A stretch of 64,000 bases of DNA from positions 5,152,001 through 5,216,000 of the forward strand of contig CM000153.2 in NCBI GenBank assembly GCA_000004695.1. The letters run 5' to 3'. Positions 908 through 61,174 of the stretch are shown here, one piece after another. The position numbers and the translations under genes are program-made. Origin of the DNA: Dictyostelium discoideum. Lineage: Eukaryota. The notes under the pieces are model-generated. The model had not been told where the DNA came from. It ran no database searches and worked only from the letters and a program-made list of their open reading frames with translations. How positions within the stretch are numbered: the first letter of the stretch is position 1; each line of letters begins with the position of its first letter.

Positions 908-1540
908 TATTAAAGGTTTTGTTTGTTTTGTTTTGTTTTTTTTTTTTTTTTTTTTTTGGGAAAAGAATAATAGTTTTTATTATTTTTTTATTTGTTTTTT
1001 TTATTTTTATTTTTATTTTTATATTAAAAAGTTTAATTTAATCAAAGAGATTAGGTTGACTAGAATACAGAGTTGGAATATAAATTTTAACCAACAAAGT
1101 TTTGAAATAATAAATTTTTTTTATTACTATTTTATTATTTTTTTTTTTTTATATTTTCTATTTGGTGTCTGTTTTATTCTTTTTTTTTAAAAAAAATTCA
1201 GTAATACCAGAGTTTCAGCGGGTTTATGTGGGATGGAGTGAATGTGTGATTTTATTTTTATTGGTGAAAAGATATCGTTTTATCTTTTTACTATTGTATT
1301 AATGTGTGGTAGTGTGGTAGTGTGGTAGTATTATTGTAGTAAAATTGGTAGTGTGCGTGTGTGTGAGTGTGGTAGTAAATTATAAAAATATTTAATAATA
1401 AAATATAAATATATATGTATATATTTTATTTTATATTTTGTAGAGAATAATTTAGTAGTGATATTTTTTATTTTTGAATAAATAGCATGCAAAAAAAAAA
1501 AAAAAAAAAAGGAGAGACTTTTTAACAAAAATAATATTAA

Positions 1541-1804
<264 letters not shown>

Positions 1805-2260
1805 TATTATAAGGTTATGTTTTTTGGTTTTATTTATTAATTTTTAATTTCATTAATGATGATTAATTTTGATAATAATTTGTCATTTACGATGAGAAGT
1901 TAATAAATATTTGATAAAAAAAAAAAAAAAAAAATAATAATAAAAAAAATAGTATCAGTTTTGATTTATCAAAAAAAAAAAATAAAAAAATAAAATTAAA
2001 AAATAATAAAAAAAAAAATTTATAAAATATTTAAAAAAATAATATTTTGAATGGGAAATTTCAAAAAAAAAAAAAAAAAAAAAAGATATTTTTCTTTTTT
2101 TTTAGACTAAAAATAGTTTTAAATTTAATTTATGTTTAAATTATTATTATTATTATAATTTCTTTTATTTTTTTTTTATTATTTTTTTTTTTATTATTTT
2201 TTTTTTTCAAATAAATATTATTTGTATATATATTTTTTAAATTATTTATTTCTTTTTTTT

Positions 2261-2291
<31 letters not shown>

Positions 2292-2309
2292 TTTTATAAA
2301 TTTTTTAAT

Positions 2310-3960
2310 TTAATTTAAATCAAAATATTTTCTAAAAAGAGGACAATATTTACTTTCTACAGTAACAAATTCTTTAAAGAATAAACTCTTTGAGTCTTTA
2401 GTTGTACAAGTTTGAGATTTTAATAATAAGAATTGATCAAAGAGTTTATCGATAGTTTCTTTGTCAGAATCTTTATAGTCATTGTAAAGACCACCATATT
2501 GACCCTCCTCTTTGGAATCCTCAAACAAGATGACGAAATAAGAGGAAAGATGATTTTGAATGGAAAACATGAAATGTTGTTGACATTCTTTTGGTGCCAA
2601 TGTCATCAATTGTAAATAGAATTCCATTGGTGTTAAGATATCATCCAAATCACCACTTTCTAAACAATAGATAACATCATTCGAGATTGCTCTTTCATGG
2701 CATGATAAAAGTTTGATACACTGTTCTTTACTCTCAACGGATGGTAATGATTGATAGATTTCAAATAAACCTTGAGTCTCCTCCAATGTAAGATGTTCCT
2801 CCTTCCATGTATTTAAATATTCAACCAAGATTGAATAAAACTTTTCAATGAATAATTTTGAATCGGTATTCTTTAAAATTGAATGGAAAACAGAAATGAA
2901 TTCACTATTAATCTCACCTTCCTCTTCATCAACGCCATCATCACCACCACCACCATTTACCAATATGAATCTATTCAAATATTCAATAATCTTTTCAACA
3001 TTATCTCTTATAAATAATCCAACAACTTTATTCTCACGTAATAAAAATGTTGATTCATTCTTTTCTAATGATTCACAACCAGCATTACTTTATTTTTTTG
3101 GAAAAAAAAAAATAAAAAATTAATAAATTTTGTTTTTTTTTTTTTTTTTTTTTAATATATTAATTAATATTTTACATACGTTATTTTTTCAATATTTTTT
3201 AAATAATATTGTTCTTGATCAGAGTCAGTTAAATAACAACAAATACTCATGAAATAAGTTGCTCTTTGTTTTTTATCAGCCAACATTGGTAATTGATATT
3301 CAAGATTTTTTAAAAGATGTGAAGATAATTCCTGTTTCTTTTCAGAGGTTAATAATTGTTGACCATTGAAAATACCCAATGATAATGAAACTAAACCTGA
3401 TAATGACTCTTTGGTTTTTTGCATTAATTCAATTGATGAAACTTTTAATAATAAATCAAATGGTGTTTTCTCTGATGATGCTTGATCAATGAATGCTTGA
3501 TCATTCTCTTCAATTTGTGTACCTAATACTAAACCAACTCTTGATAAAAAGAATTTAATTGTTTTAATTGCAATATGGCCATCTCCTGAATCTAAATCTT
3601 TATATAAATCCAAATACTAATTTTTTAAAAATAAAAAAAATAAAAAAAAAAAAAAAAAAATTAGTAAATAAATAAAAAAATAAAAAAAAATTAATAAAAA
3701 AAAAAAAAAAATTAAAATTATATAATTACATTAACTAAAATTTCAAATAATTCGAATCTCCAATTTATAATAATATCTAAAGATGAAAGTGCTTGAATGG
3801 CAAAGAATTTAACTTGATCTGATGATTCTAATGTAATTAAGGTTTCATATAATTCTATTACTTTTTTATCATCTTTATTTTCCATATAATATTTAATAAA
3901 TAAACAAGTTGATAATGCTCTTAAAATGTAATTATTACTTTTAACCCATTCTTCTAATTC

Positions 3961-4010
<50 letters not shown>

Positions 4011-4466
4011 CGTTTTATAAAATTGAAAAAAGAGAAGTCAGCGACTGGCAAATTTTTTTTTTTTATTTTTTTTTTTTATTTCCACTCCGACATTTTTTTT
4101 TAATTTTTTTTTAATTTTTTTTTTTTATTTTTGGCACACGATAAAAATAGATAAAAATAAATCCAAAAAAAAAAAAATAATAAAAAATAATAATGACTTA
4201 CGATTAATTTTTAATTTTTTTGAGATCATAAAAATGACAACAGAATTAATTGTACTTAAAATTTGACATGATTTTAATGTAGTGGTTGTAATGAATTCTT
4301 CAACTGCTTTTTTAAAATCTTCAACACTCCATTTTGAACATTGTTTTAATAAATCTTCTGAAACCATTTCTTCTAAATCGCTATCACTTTTATTTACACT
4401 TGATAATATAAAAACATTATCTGATTTTGCAATACCTTCATTTAAAAATTTTATTATTTCTTGCAT
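2310..4466 (-). CDS. Hypothetical conserved protein with a helical-repeat look, ~570 aa. Four exons on the minus strand: 4466..4202, 3959..3730, 3616..3180, 3087..2310.
   Basis: ORF segments MQEIIKFLNEGIAK..., (Q)LEEWVKSNNYILRALSTCL..., YLDLYKDLDSGDGH... and NAGCESLEKNESTFLLRENKVVGLF...YFDLN* are joined by GTAAGT/GTAATT/GTATGT donors and AT-rich-tract AG acceptors with consistent phases 1/0/2. I cannot assign a function from the sequence. Confidence 0.45.
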
Positions 4467-4715
4467 TTTTTATTTATTTTTATTATTATTATTTAAATTG
4501 TTTGTGTGTTTTGTGTGTGCGTGTGTGTTTATGTGTGAGAAAAAAATCCTATTTATTTATTTATATATATGTACAAATTTTTTTTTTTTTTTATATTTTA
4601 TTATTTTTTTATTTTTATTTTTGCTTTTTTTTTTTTTTTCTATCCTCTCAAAATAATTTTATTTTTCATGAAAAAAAAAAAAAAATAAAAAAATAAAAAT
4701 AAAAAAAAAACAATT

Positions 4716-4747
<32 letters not shown>

Positions 4748-5951
4748 TCAATAAAAAATCAGATAAAATTGGTTTTTTTTCTTTTTTTTTTTTTTATTTT
4801 TCTTTTTTTTTTTAAATAAAAACCTTTTTTTTTTTTTTTTTTTTTGTGCAATAATATTTTTAGAAATTAAAAATATCTTTCGCGCTGAACATTTGTCCAT
4901 ATTATAATAATAAACCAAACTTCACTCCGATTATATTGAAAATTAAAAAAAAAAAAAAAAAAAAAAAATAGAAAAATTCAAATTAATTTCGAATTGATTG
5001 GTGCAAGGTATTTTCTTGGCATTATCACAAGTTCAAGCCGATAGTATGAAATAAAAAAAAAATAAAAAAAAAAAAAAAAAAAAAATAAATAAATAAATAA
5101 GTAAATAAATAAATAAAAAATAAACAAATAAAAAAAATAAAAATTTAAAACTAAACAAATAAAGTTTAAAAAAAAAAAAAAAAACAATAAATTATTTTAT
5201 CATTATAATAAAATTATTTGAAAGTTTTTAAACTAAAAATAAACCAAATTCTTTTTTTTGATTTTTTTTTTTTTTTTTAAAAAAATTGATTAATTAAATA
5301 ATTCTAGTAAAGGAATAATAAAATAAAAAGTTAATTTGGAAATGATTAAAATAATCATAAGATTAAAATAATTATTATTCACAGAATATTATGTATTTTT
5401 TTTTTTTTTTTTTTTTAATAATTTAAAAATAGTTTTTGGTTAAAAAAAAAAGTGATAATGAATAACACTGAAATATTAATTATTTTTTTTTTTATTATTT
5501 TGAACTTTAACAATTTAATCTATTCCAGAAACACCGAAACGCTTTGAATTAAAAAAAGACCTTTCAGACTTTTTGACATTAATAGTTTTCTTAAAAATAA
5601 AGATTACTTTTTTTTTTTTTGATTTTTTAAATTTCGTTTTTTTATTTTCACTTTTTTTTTTTTAGTCAATTTTTTTTTTTTTTTTTTTTTTTCGAACATT
5701 TTTTTTTGTTATAAAAAAAAAAAAAATAAAAATAAAATAAAAAAAAAAAAATTTTAAATATATATACTTACATTAACTAAAATTTTGAATAGTTCAAATG
5801 AAACATATTTACATTTTTTTATTACAAACTACTGAAAATTAAAATAATCACTCAAATTATTTTTTTTTTTTTTTTTATTTTTTTGAACCAATTTCCCTAC
5901 TCAATTTTTTGAAATAATTTATTTTTTCAACTTTTTTTTTAGTTACAGCCA

Positions 5952-5986
<35 letters not shown>

Positions 5987-6044
5987 CAATAATAATGATT
6001 CAAAAAATATAAAAAAATTAAAATTAAAATTATTAAATAAAATA

Positions 6045-11167
<5,123 letters not shown>

Positions 11168-11321
11168 AGGTTGTTGTAAAAATTATAATAGTAATATAAT
11201 TCTATTTTTTATTCTTTTCTTTTCTTTTTTTTTTTTTTTATAAAAAAAATATTATTATCATTATTAGTTCTTTATTTATTTTTTTTTGTATTTTAAATAA
11301 TATCCATTTAGAAACTTAAAA

Positions 11322-11364
<43 letters not shown>

Positions 11365-11424
11365 TTTTATATAATTTATAATTTATTTTTCTATTATAAC
11401 AATATATTAAAAATTTTAATTTAT

Positions 11425-12927
11425 TTAATAATGGCCATGATGATGATGATCATTTATTCTTGAATAATTATGACGTTTTGTTTTAATGTATTTAGCTATA
11501 ATGAAAATAATTACAATACCGATGAATACAGAGAAACCTACAATTAGACCAAGAGCCCATTTTGGAAGTTTAGAATGAGATGATGTATCAATATCATAAA
11601 CATTGATATTCAATTGAATTGTATATGGATTTTGATTGTTTGTACTATAGATTGATGGTATATTAACTGAAACATATAAAGAATCTGAATCATAATTGCT
11701 TATTAAAGAAGAACCTGGATTTGGTAGCAATGAAAGATAAGCATGATTTGGTGCGGTTGTTTGATTAAAACTATAGATATCAGATAAACTAATAACCATT
11801 AAAGAGTTTTTACCATCTCCACTTGATAATGTGATTGAATTTGAAGTTTCAGAGAAAACATTTGAATATCCACTCATTGAGTCATGTTGATTCGATATTT
11901 TAAATATCATTGAATAAGTTGCACCACCACTAGTTGTATAATAAACAGTTGGTAAATAGTTGATATTAATAGTTGGAGTTAAAGTAATTGTGGCTGCTGA
12001 TGATGATAATGGTAAATAGGCACCTTTGTAATTTTCATAGCTAAATGATGGTTCCTCAACTGAAGTGAAGCCAACATCATATTGCAATTGGTTAAGCCAT
12101 GGTTTTGAAGATGGTTTACCATTTGTATAGGTTGTACCATCCAATGTAAAAGATAAACCAACTTTGCTTGATGAATTACCACTGACTGCATATTGTGATA
12201 ATTGACTAACCATGGAAATATCTGATGTTGAACCAGCAGGATTTGCAATGATATGTGATAGAACAACACTGAATTGCTCATTTGATGAACTCATTGAAAA
12301 TGTGTTAAATGCTTGGACTATTGGTGATGGTAATGAAGTTTGGTTATAAACTCTGACACTACAATCAAATGATGCTTGGTTTTGGTTACATCTACATGTA
12401 TTTCCAACATCACAGAAACCATTTTCTGAACAACCACTTGGACAACTACTGTTTGTGAATATATATTTACTAGTTCCTAATACTGGTACTGGTCCAACAG
12501 CAATTTGTTTTGTTGGAGTTTTTGATGGTGTTGGTGTTGGTACTGGAATTGGTGTATAAACCATTACAATTGCCAATGTTGTAAAGTTTACTGCATTTTT
12601 ACCACTATAATTATCTGATAATCTACATGTAATGGTTTCACCAATTGAATCAATTGTTAAACTATCATCACAATCTAATCCATATGAAATATTTGATCCT
12701 TCTTCTGGTACATTGAGTGAAACTTTAATTCCTTCTGTACTATTTAAACAAAAAATACCTTGAATAACAACTAAACTATTAATATTGTATGGGTTAACTT
12801 CTGAAACGCTAAAAATCTTTTGATGGCATTCACTTGATGATGATGATGACGATGATGTTGATGAGACAAAATAATTATTAAATGAAATGGATAGAATTAA
12901 AAGAAATAAAAGTATCTTTTTTTCCAT
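11425..12927 (-). CDS. Type I transmembrane glycoprotein, single exon. Signal peptide, Ser-rich N-terminus, PTPTPSKTPT linker, one EGF-like Cys module, one TM helix, short His-rich cytoplasmic tail.
   Basis: MEKKILLFLLILSISFNNYFVSSTSSSSSSSSE... The EGF-like module is CPSGCSENGFCDVGNTCRCNQNQASFDCS. The TM helix is LGLIVGFSVFIGIVIIFIIA followed by KYIKTKRHNYSRINDHHHHGHY*. Confidence 0.6.
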   Translation of the reverse strand: MEKKILLFLLILSISFNNYFVSSTSSSSSSSSECHQKIFSVSEVNPYNINSLVVIQGIFCLNSTEGIKVSLNVPEEGSNISYGLDCDDSLTIDSIGETITCRLSDNYSGKNAVNFTTLAIVMVYTPIPVPTPTPSKTPTKQIAVGPVPVLGTSKYIFTNSSCPSGCSENGFCDVGNTCRCNQNQASFDCSVRVYNQTSLPSPIVQAFNTFSMSSSNEQFSVVLSHIIANPAGSTSDISMVSQLSQYAVSGNSSSKVGLSFTLDGTTYTNGKPSSKPWLNQLQYDVGFTSVEEPSFSYENYKGAYLPLSSSAATITLTPTININYLPTVYYTTSGGATYSMIFKISNQHDSMSGYSNVFSETSNSITLSSGDGKNSLMVISLSDIYSFNQTTAPNHAYLSLLPNPGSSLISNYDSDSLYVSVNIPSIYSTNNQNPYTIQLNINVYDIDTSSHSKLPKWALGLIVGFSVFIGIVIIFIIAKYIKTKRHNYSRINDHHHHGHY

Positions 12928-13213
12928 TTTTTTAATTTATTTTACACTAAAAAAATAAATAATTGAAAAAAAAAAATTAAAAATATAAATGTTAAAAAAA
13001 AAAAAAAAAAAAAAGATATTTTAGAAAAATCACTGGTATCACGTATTTTTTTGGGTTGAAAATTTTGGAAATTTAGGTATGAAAAATTCCGATAAAAAAA
13101 AAAAAAAAAAAATTGTTTAGTGGAGATTTTTTTTTTTTTTTTTTTCATAACTTTATGCCATCCTGTTATATTTTATTTAAATTAAGAATTTTTTTTTTTT
13201 TGGCCATTATTAG

Positions 13214-13285
13214 TTTTTTTTGAATTGGATAGTTGTAGTCTGCTTCTCTTTGAGATTTTTTTTTTTTTTTTACAGACCTTGAATT
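13214..13285 (-). mobile_element. Solo, heavily 5'-truncated 3'-end fragment of the same retroelement family, with its poly(A) on the minus strand.
   Basis: The minus strand reads AAGGTCTGT-A16-ATCTCAAAGAGAAGCAGACTACAACTATCCAATTC-A8. This parallels the 3' terminus at 13471-13570, which reads AAAGACCCTGT-A15-...ATCTCAAGGAGAAGCAAATAATAATTGCGTTATCCAATTC-A~30. Confidence 0.35.
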
Positions 13286-13454
13286 AAAAGTGTTTGGAAA
13301 GGGTTTGAAAAGGGATTATCAATTTTTATTTCTTTTTTAATAGAATAATAGAAATAGTGTTTATTAAAAAAAATAATAAAAATAATTATTTTATTTTTAA
13401 ACAATAATTTGGATACTTCAGTGTGCACCATAGTTTAATTAAAAATAATCGATT

Positions 13455-13489
<35 letters not shown>

Positions 13490-13558
13490 AATTGGATAAC
13501 GCAATTATTATTTGCTTCTCCTTGAGATGCTAGATCTCATTTTATTTTTTTTTTTTTT

Positions 13559-13759
13559 TTACAGGGTCTTTTTGATTAAAACATCTTTTTTGTCCAAACT
13601 TTTTTCTAAATCTTTTTTTATTTTATCGTCTGGTTCGTGATTGATGTTTATGACGTATTTGAATTGTTTTTTTTTTAATTGAGTTTTATCCACAATTTCG
13701 CTTATTTTTTGTAGGCATTTGTGTTGCTTAATATTTGTGGTGTTGTTTGTGATTTTCAT
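13559..13759 (-). pseudogene. Truncated copy (first 66 codons) of the retroelement ORF1. It is fused directly to a 3'-terminal motif plus poly(A), so it looks like an internally deleted element copy.
   Basis: The peptide MKITNNTTNIKQHKCLQKISEIVDKTQLKKKQFKYVININHEPDDKIKKDLEKSLDKKDVLIK is identical to the N-terminus of ORF 14703..16037. Homology stops at 13562, where the 3'-end motif AAAGACCCTGT-A15 begins. Confidence 0.55.
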
Positions 13760-13800
13760 TTTATTTTCTTTCTATCTTTTTTATTTTTCTGATTAACTTG

Positions 13801-13842
<42 letters not shown>

Positions 13843-13855
13843 TTATAGAAAGTAC

Positions 13856-14319
13856 TGAGTGAATTATTGTATTTTTTGAGATGTTTAGGAAGTTCTATTG
13901 CGGGTGTTGATGATGATTTGTGACACCCCTTGTCCTGTTTTATCAATTGGTGCGTGGTGTGTTATTTTGTTTTTATATTGTTGATTTATTGAGTAAATTT
14001 TATTTGTTTTTATATTTGTTTCAGTTAGAAGTGCTGCGTCCAGCTTGTTGTTGTCTAAAACGGTGTTTATTATGCTGGCAGATTGGATGGTATTGGATCC
14101 TTGGACGTTCCAAACACCTATTCTTATTGTGTTTTTCTTTATAGTTTTATTTGGGGTAGATTTTTATCTACCTTTTGAAGTTTCTGGTTTATTTTGTCTT
14201 CTAACTGATCTTTACTTTGTTCATTGTGTTGTTGGTCTTGTGTGTTTGTGGGGTTTTTTGATTTATTGATTTGTTTTAGAATTTCCTTGTTGAAGTTGTC
14301 TATATCTTCATCCATTTTT
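13856..14319 (-). repeat. Second copy of the ORF1 C-terminal part plus ~290 bp of 3' region of the retroelement, truncated by the assembly gap.
   Basis: Near-identity of 13856-14299 with 14420-14880, with identical spurious ORFs on both strands in the track. It ends in GTACTTTCTATAAAT + A38 (plus 13841-13803, reverse complement). Confidence 0.7.
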
Positions 14320-14419
14320 NNNNNNNNNNNNNNNNNNNNNNNNNNNNNNNNNNNNNNNNNNNNNNNNNNNNNNNNNNNNNNNNNNNNNNNNNNNNNNNNN
14401 NNNNNNNNNNNNNNNNNNN
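14320..14419. other. Assembly gap (100 N) inside the retroelement tandem array.
   Basis: Run of exactly 100 N. Identical sequence on both flanks implies a collapsed or unresolved repeat. Confidence 0.95.
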
Positions 14420-14702
14420 TGAGTGAATTATTGTATTTTTTGAGATGTTTAGGAAGTTCTATTGCGGGTGTTGATGATGATTTGTGACACCCCTTGTCCT
14501 GTTTTATCAATTGGTGCGTGGTGTGTTATTTTGTTTTTATATTGTTGATTTATTGAGTAAATTTTATTTGTTTTTATATTTGTTTCAGTTAGAAGTGCTG
14601 CGTCCAGCTTGTTGTTGTCTAAAACGGTGTTTATTATGCTGGCAGATTGGATGGTATTGGATCCTTGGACGTTCCAAACACCTATTCTTATTGTGTTTTT
14701 CT

Positions 14703-16037
14703 TTATAGTTTTATTTGGGGTAGATTTTTATCTACCTTTTGAAGTTTCTGGTTTATTTTGTCTTCTAACTGATCTTTACTTTGTTCATTGTGTTGTTGGT
14801 CTTGTGTGTTTGTGGGGTTTTTTGATTTATTGATTTGTTTTAGAATTTCCTTGTTGAAGTTGTCTATATCTTCATCCATTTTTGTTTTTATGCTTTTTTG
14901 TCCATATTCACCCAATTTTGGTTTGACTGGTGTTTTGTTGGTCTTGTTTGTTTTGTCTTGTTGTTTCTTTTTTGGTGTGTTTAACAATTTACTTGGTGAA
15001 TCGATAATTTTCGATGGTGTACCATAGGTTGGGCTGAAACTCATGATATGTTTTATTGGAGAGGAGAAGAACCATTGATTTGAAGGGATTGAAAGTGGGA
15101 ATTCTATTTTTCTTATTGCATCAGTGTTTGGGCTGGTGAAGTCGAAGATATCATTTGCCTCTCTAAGTTTTTCTTCCGTTGTTAGTCCCTTTGTTTCGCC
15201 GTGTTGTTTTATTGGTGTATTGTATGGAGATGGTGGTTCGATAGGTTTTTCTGATTTTGTTTTAATTTCTTGATTGTTTATCGATTGTGTATTGATCTCA
15301 TTCTCTATTCTTGTTAGTTCATCTACGTTTTCTAGTGATGCTTCTATTACCTTTTGAGCTGTATCATCTAGGGCCATAAATGTTTTATCATTAGATGAGG
15401 ATGTGATTGGTGGGATAATGATTGTTCTTTTTCCTTGTTTTGGTATTTGTTCTGATGTAGATTGTGGTTGTTGTTCATCTGATTGTTTTTTATTTTTGTT
15501 TTCTTCTTGATTTTCTGGTAATGAGGTTTGATCTCTCCATCCTTTGTTGGAGTGTCCAATTAATGTTAGATTGTCTAGTTCAATGATAGTGTCAAATTCT
15601 TCTACGACTCTTTTCACTGTTTTGATAATTAGAGTTTCGCCTTTAATTTCTGATTTAATTAGTTTACATCCTTCATTTTCTATTACCCATTCTATTTCTG
15701 TGAGTGATTTATACCAATCAAAATCTGTATACATATTTTTTGGTCTTATAGTGGTTATAAATTGTCCTTTTAATTCTGCATCAAACATATTTACAAAATA
15801 GATTACTGTACTAATACTGTCTGTGAGAATTTTGAATGTATTATTACTTTTGATTAAAACATCTTTTTTGTCCAAACTTTTTTCTAAATCTTTTTTTATT
15901 TTATCGTCTGGTTCGTGATTGATGTTTATGACGTATTTGAATTGTTTTTTTTTTAATTGAGTTTTATCCACAATTTCGCTTATTTTTTGTAGGCATTTGT
16001 GTTGCTTAATATTTGTGGTGTTGTTTGTGATTTTCAT
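14703..16037 (-). CDS. Retroelement ORF1-like protein of 444 aa, no RT domain. It is the main ORF of the TRE5-like unit nearest the tRNA.
   Basis: Uninterrupted ORF MKITNNTTNIKQHKCLQKISEIVDK...LPQIKL* inside the repeated element. Its N-terminus is duplicated at 13559..13759 and its C-terminus at 14139..14299. ~51 kDa is consistent with a TRE5-A ORF1-sized product, a figure I recall from memory and have not checked. Confidence 0.45.
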   Translation of the reverse strand: MKITNNTTNIKQHKCLQKISEIVDKTQLKKKQFKYVININHEPDDKIKKDLEKSLDKKDVLIKSNNTFKILTDSISTVIYFVNMFDAELKGQFITTIRPKNMYTDFDWYKSLTEIEWVIENEGCKLIKSEIKGETLIIKTVKRVVEEFDTIIELDNLTLIGHSNKGWRDQTSLPENQEENKNKKQSDEQQPQSTSEQIPKQGKRTIIIPPITSSSNDKTFMALDDTAQKVIEASLENVDELTRIENEINTQSINNQEIKTKSEKPIEPPSPYNTPIKQHGETKGLTTEEKLREANDIFDFTSPNTDAIRKIEFPLSIPSNQWFFSSPIKHIMSFSPTYGTPSKIIDSPSKLLNTPKKKQQDKTNKTNKTPVKPKLGEYGQKSIKTKMDEDIDNFNKEILKQINKSKNPTNTQDQQHNEQSKDQLEDKINQKLQKVDKNLPQIKL

Positions 16038-16112
16038 TTTATTTTCTTTCTATCTTTTTTATTTTTCTTTAAAAAGTTAAAAATCTGGAAATTTTCTAAT
16101 TAACTTGGTTCC

Positions 16113-16156
<44 letters not shown>

Positions 16157-16272
16157 TCTTTTTTATATGAAAAATGAAATAATCAAAAAAAGAGATTGTT
16201 GTTGTTGTTTGTTTTTTTCGATCTCCAAAATAATCGATTTATTTTGCTATTAAAATTTTTATTTCATCCAAA

Positions 16273-16355
16273 GCAAGGGTAGGAAAGTCTGGTTAAATCC
16301 GTGTGACTTAAGATCTCATCCATTCGGTTCGCGAGTTCGAATCTCGCCTCTTGCA
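16273..16355 (+). tRNA. tRNA-Leu, anticodon UAA, type II tRNA with a long variable arm.
   Basis: The acceptor stem GCAAGGG pairs with CTCTTGC, with discriminator A. The anticodon loop is CTTAAGA, so the anticodon is TAA. A long variable arm TCCATTCGGTTC is present. The T-arm is GCGAG-TTCGAAT-CTCGC, and its internal B box reads GAGTTCGAATCTC. Confidence 0.85.
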
Positions 16356-16385: not shown

Positions 16386-16398
16386 TGGTTCAATTCTT
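16386..16398 (+). promoter_or_regulatory. Candidate external B box (exB-like motif TGGTTCAATTCTT) ~31 bp downstream of the tRNA.
   Basis: 8 of 11 positions match the B-box consensus GGTTCGAATCC. Dictyostelium tRNA genes are known to carry downstream exB boxes. This is only a resemblance. Confidence 0.3.
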
Positions 16399-16402
16399 TA
16401 AT

Positions 16403-16656
16403 GAAACAATATACAAATTAAATAACAGAGACCAATTAATAATCAACTTCAACACATCATGGCATAACCCGAACACTCCAAACCCAATTCCATTATAATA
16501 AAAAAAAAAAAAAAAAAAAAAAACAAGTAGTAGTAATCATAATATAACCAAAAATATCAACATATAACAATATAAAAATTTAAAAATTTAAAAATCTAAA
16601 AATTTAAAAATGTAATAAAATATAACAATACACCGCTTTTAGGTAAAAAAAAAAAA
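16403..16656 (+). mobile_element. ~254-bp poly(A)-terminated insertion flanked by a perfect 16-bp target-site duplication GGTTCAATTCTTTAAT (16387-16402 and 16657-16672). Candidate 5'-truncated TRE3-type (tRNA-downstream) retroelement 3' fragment.
   Basis: Perfect 16-bp direct repeats. The insert ends in A12 immediately before the second repeat copy and also has an internal A23 run at 16498-16520. The insert is A/C-rich on the plus strand. The insertion point is ~45 bp past the tRNA 3' end. Family identity is inferred from position. Confidence 0.4.
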
Positions 16657-17135
16657 GGTTCAATTCTTTAATTTTAAATCCAAGGTTTCATAGGTTTTTG
16701 TTACATAGTTGCACATGTTAACCACTATGCTGTGCCCATTTTTATGAGCTTAAAGATTACCCGTAGTCTAGAATCAAATCAAAAAAACCGCCAAAACCAA
16801 CCAAACACCCAAAAAAAAAAACTGGCGAACCTATTGGATGGATACAAAATTAACATAAAAAAAAATTCTCCCTCAAACAAATCAATAGAACCCGACTAAA
16901 CCACGATTAGCATTATTTTTAAAAATATAATCCATAAATAAACTTTTAGCTATTGTAAATTTATTCACTTAAATGGATAAACTCTAAAAAAAAAAATTAA
17001 AAAATAAAAGATAAAAAATTTGTATTACTTGAATTAATACTGTTACAGAAGAAATGTTTTATTAATTTTTATTTTTTATTTATTTTTATTTTTTTAATAA
17101 TTTTTTATCTTTTTATTATTTTTATAATTATTTCA

Positions 17136-19624: not shown

Positions 19625-22437
19625 TTAATAATATTATTTAAATCTTGAATTTGAGTTTTTAATTGATCGATTTCAGTTTGTTTTTCAAAAGTAACAGATA
19701 AGAACTCAGCGTTTTTATTTTCTAAATCTTGTTGTATTTGAGAAACCTTTGAATCTTGTTCAGATTGTTTAGAGGTAATTTGTTGTAACTCTTGATCCTT
19801 TGAAGTTAATTCATCTTTAACAGATTGTAACTCTTGATCTTTTGAAGATAATTGATCTTTAGTTGATTGTAAATCTGAATCTTTTGAGGATAATTGATCT
19901 TTAACTGATTGTAAATCTGAATCTTTGCTTGATAATTGATCTTTAATTGATTGTAATTCTGAATCTTTTGAAGATAATTGATCTTTAGATGATTGTAACT
20001 CTGAATCTTTAGTTGATAATTGATCTTTAATTGATTGTAATTCAGAATCTTTGCTTGATAATTGATCCTTAGTTGATTGTAACTCTGTATCTTTAGCGGA
20101 TAATTGATCAGTGGTTGAAGATTGACAAGATAATTGATCTTTAGCAGATTGTAACTCTTGATCTTTAGTTGATAATTGATCTTTGGTTGATTGTAACTCT
20201 TGATCTTTTGAAGATAATTGATCTTTAGTTGATTGTAATTCTTGATCTTTTGAAGATAATTGATCTTTAACAGATTGTAAATCAGATTCAATTGATTTAA
20301 TTTGAGTGTCTTTATTTGATAATTGTTCATCTTTTGAAGATAATTGATCTTTGGTTGATTGTAATTCTTGATCCTTTGAAGATAATTGATCCTTAACAGA
20401 TTGTAAATCAGATTCAATTGATTTAATTTGAGAGTCTTTATTTGATAATTGTTCATCCTTTGATTTTAATTCTGAATCCTTGGATAAAAGTTGATCTTTT
20501 ACACTTGATAATTCTGAATCAGTGTTTGATGATTGTGATGAGAGTTGTTCCTTAACACTTGATAACTCTGACTCTAAGCATTTCAATTGTTCATCTTTTG
20601 AAGATAACTCTGAATCTTTTGATTGTAATTGTTGTTGTAAATTGAGTTCAATAGATTTCAATTTTTCATCTTTTGACTCGTTATGTTCTGATTGTTGTTC
20701 AAGTTGAGATTTAACATCTTGTAATTGTTGAAGAGTTTGTTGTAAAGTGAGTTCAACAGATTTCAATTTTTGATCTTTTGATTCACTATCTTCAGATTGT
20801 TGTTCAAGTTGAGATTTAACATTTTGTAACTCTTGATCTTTTGATTGTAATTGTTGGAGGGTTTGTTGTAAATTGAGTTCAACAGATTTCAATTTTTCAT
20901 CTTTTGATTGACTATCTTCAGATTGTTGTTCAAGTAAAGCAGATTGTTTCTTTGAAGTCTCAAGTAACTCTGAATCCTTTGATTGTAATTGATTTTGGAG
21001 TTTTTCAAATTCAGATTGTAATTGGCTCAACTCGGTGATCTTTGATTGTAATGCTTGAGATTCAGTGGATTGATTAGAGGCGAGTTGTTGCTTCAATTGA
21101 CTGATTTCATTTTGTAAATTATTGGTGGTGGTTTGTTGTTCAGATTGTTTTGCCTCTAATTGGTCAACGAGTTTTTCAATTTGGAAATCTTTTTCATCAG
21201 TGATATTTTTATTCATTTTCTCGTACATCTCTAAACGTTCAAGCAATTCAGCTGTACGTTTCTTTTCGTCTTCGTAGGAACGAATCAATTCGGTCTCTTT
21301 GGTGGTGAAACCATTGGTGGCTCTGGTTAACTCTCCAATCTTGGTTTCTTTTTGTGATAATACATTGGTTAAATCATCGACTTTCTCTGTGAATGATGAT
21401 ACTTGTTGTTGAAGTATTACAATTTGTTGTTGATATTTTTGTACCATTATCTCCTTCTCTGCTGAAATATTTGAAAGTTCACTTTGTAATTCAGTGATCT
21501 CTTTCTTTAAATTGGTAGTAGTAGTAGTATTATTACCACCATTTAATGTATAATTATATTGTTGTAAATCATTAGTTGATTGATTAATTGGTGAATTTGA
21601 TTCTGGTGTTTTTTGTTGTGTGGTGGTTGATTTATTTAATTCGATTTGTTGTTCTAATCTCTTTATTTTCTCTAATAAAGTAGTTTCAATATTTTCTTTA
21701 TTGGTGATTTCTTTTTTGTGAGAATCATTCAATAAATTGATTCTAATACTTGATTGTTCTCTTTCTTTTTCAAGTTGATTCTTAATTTCATTGATACTGG
21801 ATTTAAGATTTGAAATTTTTTCAAATTCTGTTGGTGCTGTTTTAACTGTTTTCCAAGTACCATCATTAAAATTGGTTGGTTCTTCTTCTATAATGACATT
21901 TGTAGTGGTGGTGGTAGTATTTTTGATTGGTTGTTTTACTGGTGGTTGTTCAACTTTAGTTGCTTGTTTCTTTGGTGGTGGTTGTTCAACAACTTTCTTT
22001 GGTTCTGCTACTTTCTTTGGTTCCTCTACTTTCTTTGGTTGTTCGACAACTTTCTTTGGTTCTGCTGCTTTCTTTGGTGGTTGTTGTTTTTCAACAACTT
22101 TCTTTGGTTCCTCTACTTTCTTTGGTTGTTGTTCAGTGACAGCTGGTTTAACGACTACTGGTTCAACTACTTTTGGTGATTCAACCTTTACAGTTTCTGA
22201 TTTAACCTCAACTGGTTTGGATGGTTGTTCTTTCTTTTTCTTTTGAGTGGTTGTTTGTTTGGTTGGTTGTTGTTGTTGTTTTTTATTAGTTTTTGATTGT
22301 TTTGGTGTGTTGTTATTAATTGTTTGTTGTTTGGCTAATGCTCCATCAAATATACGTTTTGGTTTGACAACGAAAAATTGATAGAAAAAGTAACCTGCAA
22401 CACAAGCCACAACTGTTAAAACTAATGCTCCTATCAT
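19363..22437 (-). CDS. Membrane-anchored long coiled-coil protein. N-terminal TM helix, PKK/PKKVEEP repeat region, and ~25 tandem 14-aa (42-nt) repeats of the type LSSKDQELQSTKDQ. The start is probably the internal Met (MIGALVLTVV...), not the AT-rich upstream Met.
   Basis: ORF 19363..22521. The hydrophobic stretch MIGALVLTVVACVAGYFFYQFFVV is followed by KPKR. The heptad-rich sequence carries SKDSELQS/SKDQELQS tandem repeats, conserved at nucleotide level across 19800-20500. Confidence 0.6.
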
Positions 22438-61074: not shown

Positions 61075-61174
61075 NNNNNNNNNNNNNNNNNNNNNNNNNN
61101 NNNNNNNNNNNNNNNNNNNNNNNNNNNNNNNNNNNNNNNNNNNNNNNNNNNNNNNNNNNNNNNNNNNNNNNNNN
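61075..61174. other. Assembly gap (100 N) lying 35 nt upstream of the MGGNQ start and inside a longer open frame.
   Basis: Exactly 100 N. Poly-Asn coding (AAT/ATT repeats) on both sides. Confidence 0.95.

Follow-up and report, generated by a model that had tools for sequence, protein, structure and literature searches.

The transfer RNA (tRNA) gene for leucine, tRNA-Leu(UAA), is the sole tRNA gene that ARAGORN finds in a 64-kb stretch of the Dictyostelium discoideum contig CM000153.2 (hereafter the window), and just upstream of it lies a block of DNA enclosed by two identical 19-mers. What was inserted there, and was it one element or several? The initial annotation had described an array of TRE5-like retroelements. 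We are highly confident that the block is instead a single recent copy of TRE5-A.2, a non-autonomous non-LTR (long terminal repeat) retrotransposon of D. discoideum, 2202 bp in length and lying on the minus strand. The composition of the insert does differ sharply from that of its flanks as first described, the G+C content between the 19-mers being above that of the flanks, and the AT skew between 13450 and 15550 lying at -0.43 to -0.57, compared with about +/-0.2 in the flanks (the plus strand of the insert is T-rich).

The window contains exactly two copies of the 19-mer AAAATAATCGATTTATTTT (plus strand), one at 13442-13460 and one at 16227-16245, and no third match was found there with up to two mismatches allowed. 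The duplicate and its second position had been recognised correctly, but the first copy had been placed 10 nucleotides (nt) away, at 13452-13470. The pair might be taken for a chance repeat with no insertion behind it, given a very AT-rich genome in which low-complexity repeats are common, a possibility that the initial annotation had itself raised; dinucleotide-preserving shuffles contained 0.18 matches on average and none of 100 reached two, whilst ~216 kb of related loci contain the word a single time, at the orthologous site. This orthologous locus (L010), from the D. discoideum assembly GCA_054883475.1, was fetched via the neighbouring 500-amino-acid gene (11425-12927, minus strand) and contains the same tRNA-Leu(taa). 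Window positions 22000 to 16227 align with L010 1743 to 7488 at 99.5% identity and positions 13460 to 9000 with L010 7470 to 11919 at 99.8% identity, the two alignments overlapping at L010 7470-7488, 19 nt that are exactly AAAATAATCGATTTATTTT. In a three-way alignment L010 has this single copy at the junction, with the tRNA spacer on one side and the distal flank on the other. The L010 allele is the empty site that the initial annotation had proposed to look for in another strain, it proves an insertion with target-site duplication at the window locus, and it rules out the chance repeat, to which we would in any case assign a negligible probability. The insertion is polymorphic between the two assemblies, which is in keeping with a TRE5-A family known to be still active, and can serve as a strain marker. 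The duplication reads as 19 bp at most, or 15 bp if AAAA is counted as tail, because the word starts with AAAA (in element orientation) directly after the poly(A) tail.

Between the two 19-mers lie 2766 nt (13461-16226), which agrees with the ~2.75 kb plus gap first reported, but this span includes 100 N and an exact 464-bp duplicate and the real insert is 2202 bp. The blocks 13856-14319 and 14420-14883 are identical at 464 of 464 nt and abut the N gap on either side, and this is the only one of the four N gaps in the window to have duplicated flanks. We collapsed the element by joining 16226 to 14420 with 13855 to 13461 on the minus strand (2202 nt, "merged" positions below). From position 3 to 2184-2201 the merged sequence shares 99.3-99.7% identity with nine contiguous copies in GCA_054883475.1, and the 464-bp duplication is missing from all nine. 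As the collapsed sequence matches these contiguous copies, the 2.77-kb composite is best read as a 2.2-kb element with an unmerged overlap; on these alignments the insert is one 2202-bp element, the 464-bp repeat is an unmerged contig overlap and no real extra sequence, and the N gap can be closed as such. The upper contig end lies 15 nt short of a 38-nt homopolymer, which is plausibly behind the assembly break. Another exact repeat, of 221 nt (13570-13790 and 15848-16068, repeat family D6), is found in every copy elsewhere and is the element's own architecture, the B-module duplication of TRE5-A. That several TRE5 elements lie between the 19-mers, arrayed or nested, and that the gap conceals further sequence strikes us as very unlikely: four long A-runs and the 221-nt and 464-nt blocks do look composite, but the shorter repeat is TRE5-A's own B-module duplication (PMC3159450), the longer one is 100% identical, abuts the gap on both sides and collapses to a structure seen nine times elsewhere, and one pair of duplications surrounds one insertion event. 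The array-like look came from the overlap at the gap together with the duplicated B-module. The other three 100-N gaps (29760-29859, 34835-34934 and 61075-61174) are unlike simple unmerged overlaps, because the 40-mers that flank them are unique in the window.

The single element reads, from the alignments, as (GG)-partial A-B-ORF1-(ORF2 deleted)-B-C-poly(A), where ORF is open reading frame (Table 1). The autonomous TRE5-A.1 is described as AB-ORF1/ORF2-BC, where A (200 bp), B (290 bp, with a second copy in the 3' untranslated region) and C denote modules, whilst TRE5-A.2 (formerly DRE b) is defined by a large ORF2 deletion and a 72-bp BC deletion that keeps the terminal 87 bp of C (PMC3159450). 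Full-length relatives elsewhere carry ORF1 and then an ORF2 of 1047 amino acids, whose reverse-transcriptase domain matches RVT_1 (E = 2.4e-33). Against one of these (L003 1-5480), merged positions 3-1761 match L003 6-1763 at 98.5% identity and 1761-1878 match L003 4897-5028, with the intervening 3133 bp (L003 1764-4896) gone and the junction at window position 14466. At the B/C junction 9 nt stand in place of L003 5273-5356 (84 nt), a net loss of ~75 nt which leaves 81-87 nt of the C-module, and the terminal 99 nt of the element match L003 5357-5455. The window copy therefore shares with TRE5-A.2 a B-ORF1-BC layout with B-modules at both the 5' and 3' ends, the deleted ORF2, an intact 444-amino-acid ORF1, the shortened B/C region and the poly(A) tail, and differs from TRE5-A.1 (~5.65 kb) in lacking both ORF2 and a complete B/C junction. 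The numbering used for TRE5-A.1 implies 5647 nt (PMC3159450), and the 5450 nt of L003 from partial A plus one 199-nt A unit would come to ~5649 nt.

The residues at which C-module mutants were made, T15C, C26A, A35C and C38A as numbered from the 3' end (PMC3159450), are all as published for TRE5-A in the window copy (T15, C26, A35 and C38 on the sense strand counted from 13489). The C-module hairpin is needed for retrotransposition according to the literature, and the terminal 54 nt fold as RNA at -11.3 kcal/mol (z = -3.0), with positions 15 and 26 in one predicted stem and 35 and 38 in another. Hallmarks of a non-LTR element are present: a 3' poly(A) (28 nt, on the minus strand as first noted), a target-site duplication of 15-19 bp and no terminal repeats. 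Other tRNA-associated elements also insert upstream of tRNA genes, among them TRE5-B, TRE5-C (which likewise ends in a C-module) and the LTR element DGLT-A, yet an assignment to any of these seems exceedingly improbable. A 3' B-module is confined to TRE5-A and missing from TRE5-B and TRE5-C (PMC3159450), and DGLT-A has LTRs, a single gag-pol ORF and a position 13-33 bp upstream according to the literature, whereas the window element ends in poly(A), is free of LTRs, lies at a distance of 46 bp and has the C-module residues of TRE5-A.

ORF1 is intact over its 444 amino acids (16037 to 14703, minus strand), as first annotated, and is 99-100% identical to a multicopy D. discoideum ORF. The identical protein is annotated at several sites in strain AX4, occurs on 14 contigs of our collection and was retrieved at nine places in GCA_054883475.1; its database entries, from AX4 and other D. 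discoideum assemblies, are all labelled hypothetical protein with no family name. No family was matched in a Pfam scan, in agreement with the published lack of homology between TRE5-A ORF1 and other ORF1 proteins. Residue 10 is isoleucine, as in the stop mutant I10* of TRE5-A ORF1, whose product is reported to be a targeting protein that binds TFIIIB subunits (PMC3159450). A literature search on the DDB_G gene identifiers returned no matches, and a scan of PMC4559204 for TRE5-A primer sequences gave none that were usable. The protein identity to many copies, with DNA identity of 99.3-99.7%, points to a young copy, which bears on whether the element is ancestral and the empty L010 allele arose by precise loss through recombination between the 19-bp repeats. 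Only one other strain was compared and direct repeats can mediate deletion, but recombination across 19 bp is rare and TRE5-A is active in laboratory strains (PMC3159450, PMC5391098), and we give such a loss little credence.

The position of this recent TRE5-A.2 insertion is also that of its family. The tRNA-Leu(taa) is supported by the Rfam tRNA model (49.1 bits), and the 5' edge of the element (16226) lies exactly 46 nt from tRNA +1 at 16273 (16227-16272), the distance first reported. TRE5-A integrates 47 +/- 3 bp upstream of tRNA genes (PMC5391098) and always head-to-head with them (PMC3159450, PMC5391098); here the element occupies the minus strand, its tail lying at 13461-13488, and the tRNA the plus strand, their 5' ends facing each other, and the upstream rule invoked by the initial annotation holds in both distance and orientation. 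In 17 other copies, retrieved through three ORF1 variants, the tRNA is on the opposite strand and the element (or its extra nucleotides) starts 45-50 nt from tRNA +1, whilst the target-site duplications in the six other copies that were checked span 14-16 bp and stop 45-48 nt short of tRNA +1. Untemplated 5' nucleotides, often G, are frequent at TRE5-A insertions (PMC5391098, PMC3159450). In the window copy GG precedes AGATCG, as it does in L021, a single G is found in L005, L006 and L023, and the two extra G are probably untemplated. The head-to-head position, the variable target-site duplication and the extra 5' G are thus further points shared with TRE5-A.2. In all, the tRNA-targeting, duplication-bounded TRE5-family element of the initial annotation is borne out, both by the empty site in another strain and by a multicopy ORF followed by a reverse-transcriptase ORF in full-length copies.

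Four points weigh against this assignment. The name TRE5-A was assigned from structural descriptions and five residue positions in the literature, with 99.3-99.7% identity to multicopy elements of the architecture published for TRE5-A as stand-in for a curated consensus; what the N gap holds in the sequenced strain is read from its flanks and from copies elsewhere; a 19-bp duplication is a little above the 10-16 bp published for tagged elements, with 15 bp remaining if AAAA is set aside; and the copy has no full A-module and so departs from the AB-ORF1-BC formula.

TRE5-A, or DRE, has been under study since the late 1980s, and the finding is in this sense already known, an ordinary TRE5-A.2 copy at the usual position of the family. 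The tRNA targeting, the A.2 derivative, the duplications and the extra 5' nucleotides of TRE5-A are all published, and the locus has little import beyond annotation. As judged from its sequence, the sole oddity of the window copy is the lack of any complete A-module (199 bp). Of this module, the promoter of TRE5-A (PMC3159450), only the first 71 nt (16154-16224) are present. In a survey of 24 other copies, 1-21 full 199-bp units are followed by the partial A (71 nt and an A-run) and the B-module, whereas the window copy, with zero full units, has nucleotide 1 of the partial A immediately after GG. Copies shortened at the 5' end are a known outcome in the TRE5-A family, and the missing A-module does not exclude membership. 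The source RNA may have begun at the partial A beside the B-module, with an A unit upstream as its promoter, although we regard this as rather doubtful; if true, each A-module in a tandem would serve from upstream as promoter for the start site of the unit after it, and an element could shed its own promoter on transposition. Alternatively, the A and partial-A repeats may have recombined once the element was in place, with the loss of 199 bp. That the assembler collapsed a tandem run of A-modules was judged unlikely, because the unique flank, partial A, A-run and B-module lie within ~300 nt, which a single read would span. With its promoter A-module missing, the window copy would probably give rise to few further insertions. 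Long A-module arrays occur in GCA_054883475.1, with 21 units of 199 bp in L006 (1627-5808), 19 in L036 (2036-5816), 10 in L030 (3824-5813) and 7-8 in L001, L007 and L034; these differ from the standard description of TRE5-A, which has one A-module.

What is observed directly is the insertion with its boundaries, position and orientation, its membership of the family and the deletions that define A.2; a mechanism can be taken from the published TRE5-A model, from which we infer the protein interactions, the order of the nicks and mobilisation in trans. The ORF1 protein would recognise TFIIIB/TFIIIC at the tRNA gene, and the ORF2 protein (endonuclease and reverse transcriptase) would come in trans from a full-length TRE5-A.1. 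The first nick would fall on the plus strand ~27-31 nt upstream of tRNA +1, at ...ATTTATTTT/GCTAT, leaving the plus-strand end ...ATTTATTTT-3' (13460) as primer, the T's of which could pair with the poly(A) tail so that target-primed reverse transcription copies the RNA. A second-strand cut at -46 would then produce the 15-19-bp duplication and the two extra G, the latter probably derived from the RNA cap.

Table 1 Features of the TRE5-A.2 insertion and its target in the window.
Feature	Position	Strand	Basis
Distal target-site duplication copy, AAAATAATCGATTTATTTT on +	13442..13460	.	Exact match; single copy at L010 7470-7488
Poly(A) tail, 28 nt, element 3' end	13461..13488	-	A-run at merged 2175-2202
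C-module remnant, end of 3' untranslated region, hairpin	13489..13569	-	99% identity to L003 5357-5455
B/C deletion junction	within 13561-13569	-	Alignment with full-length copy L003
66-amino-acid pseudo-ORF, second copy of ORF1 start	13759..13559	-	Lies in 3' B-module
3' B-module copy	13570..13802	-	221-nt exact repeat; matches L003 5052-5272
Internal 38-nt A-run upstream of 3' B-module	13803..13840	-	Merged 1823-1860
Duplicate of 14420-14883 (ORF1 3' end, inter-ORF segment, ORF2-deletion junction)	13856..14319	-	464/464 identity
100-N assembly gap	14320..14419	.	Sequence
Segment after ORF1: 237 nt common with full-length TRE5-A.1, deletion junction 14466, last part of ORF2	14420..14702	-	
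ORF1, 444 amino acids, intact	14703..16037	-	Open reading frame
5' B-module (leader and ORF1 start)	15848..16116	-	Repeat family D6; alignment with other copies
Internal 37-nt A-run, partial A-module to B-module	16117..16153	-	Merged 74-110
Partial A-module, first 71 nt, AGATCGAAAAAAAC...GACTT	16154..16224	-	Alignment with L002, L004, L005
Two extra G at 5' junction	16225..16226	-	Missing from internal A/A junctions, AATAATC/AGATCG
tRNA-side target-site duplication copy	16227..16245	.	Exact match; three-way alignment with L010
Target gene tRNA-Leu(UAA), head-to-head with element	16273..16355	+	ARAGORN, Rfam
Internal B box GTTCGAATC of tRNA-Leu(UAA)	16335-16343	+	tRNA sequence

Older fragments lie on both sides of the element. 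Downstream of the same tRNA, the 16-mer GGTTCAATTCTTTAAT at 16387-16402 and 16657-16672 flanks a 254-nt plus-strand fragment that ends in a 12-nt A-run and starts 47 nt past the tRNA-Leu 3' end, a second insertion footprint that may represent a 5'-truncated TRE3-type element; GGTTCAATTCTTTAAT contains the B-box-like word GTTCAATTC, which is thereby doubled (16388 and 16658), and the footprint (16387-16672) is also present in L010. The region that follows (16673-17010) is A- and C-rich, its composition differing between the strands (GC skew ~-0.3, AT skew ~+0.3), and might have been left by an older tRNA-downstream element. On the other side, immediately beyond the distal duplication, 13190-13441 is an older fragment in the same orientation as the element, again present in L010, the end of which resembles the TRE5-A C-module (...TCTGT-A15-ATCTCAAAGAGAAGCAGAC...TATCCAATTC-A8, with the C-module-like part at ~13200-13290); it may be the 3' end of a TRE5-C-like element or of an old TRE5, in tandem with the new element, and no target-site duplication longer than a 10-nt AT word was found around it. 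These flanking fragments could not be named, because a BLAST search of the window and of 19 loci (L001-L019) with 13150-13441, 16404-16656 and 16673-17010 gave self and L010 matches only. The gene used to fetch L010 encodes a Ser/Thr-rich protein with apparent hydrophobic segments near both ends, as read from the translation, and the empty-site strain encodes the identical protein. The gene starts 534 nt beyond the poly(A) end of the element, on the same strand, such that sense read-through from the element would enter its upstream region.

Among the related loci, L034 carries a solo C-module and poly(A) insertion (4261-4426) with its own duplication TCGCAATTTTAA, 45 nt from a tRNA-Val. It lies between that tRNA and an older full-length TRE5-A, the newest element being closest to the tRNA, and such TRE-TRE tandem behaviour is published (PMC5391098). 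L032 and L033 (~1100-13335) contain head-to-tail ORF1-ORF2 pairs, in which the next ORF1 starts 121 nt after the ORF2 stop, and look like arrays joined through the B-module, not independent insertions. In L005 (7994-8045) the element tail is followed by the target word (A)TGGTTTCGTACATTC, a 21-nt A-run and the near-identical word CATGGTTTCGTACAT, which suggests an earlier, almost fully truncated insertion at the same site of which only poly(A) was retained.

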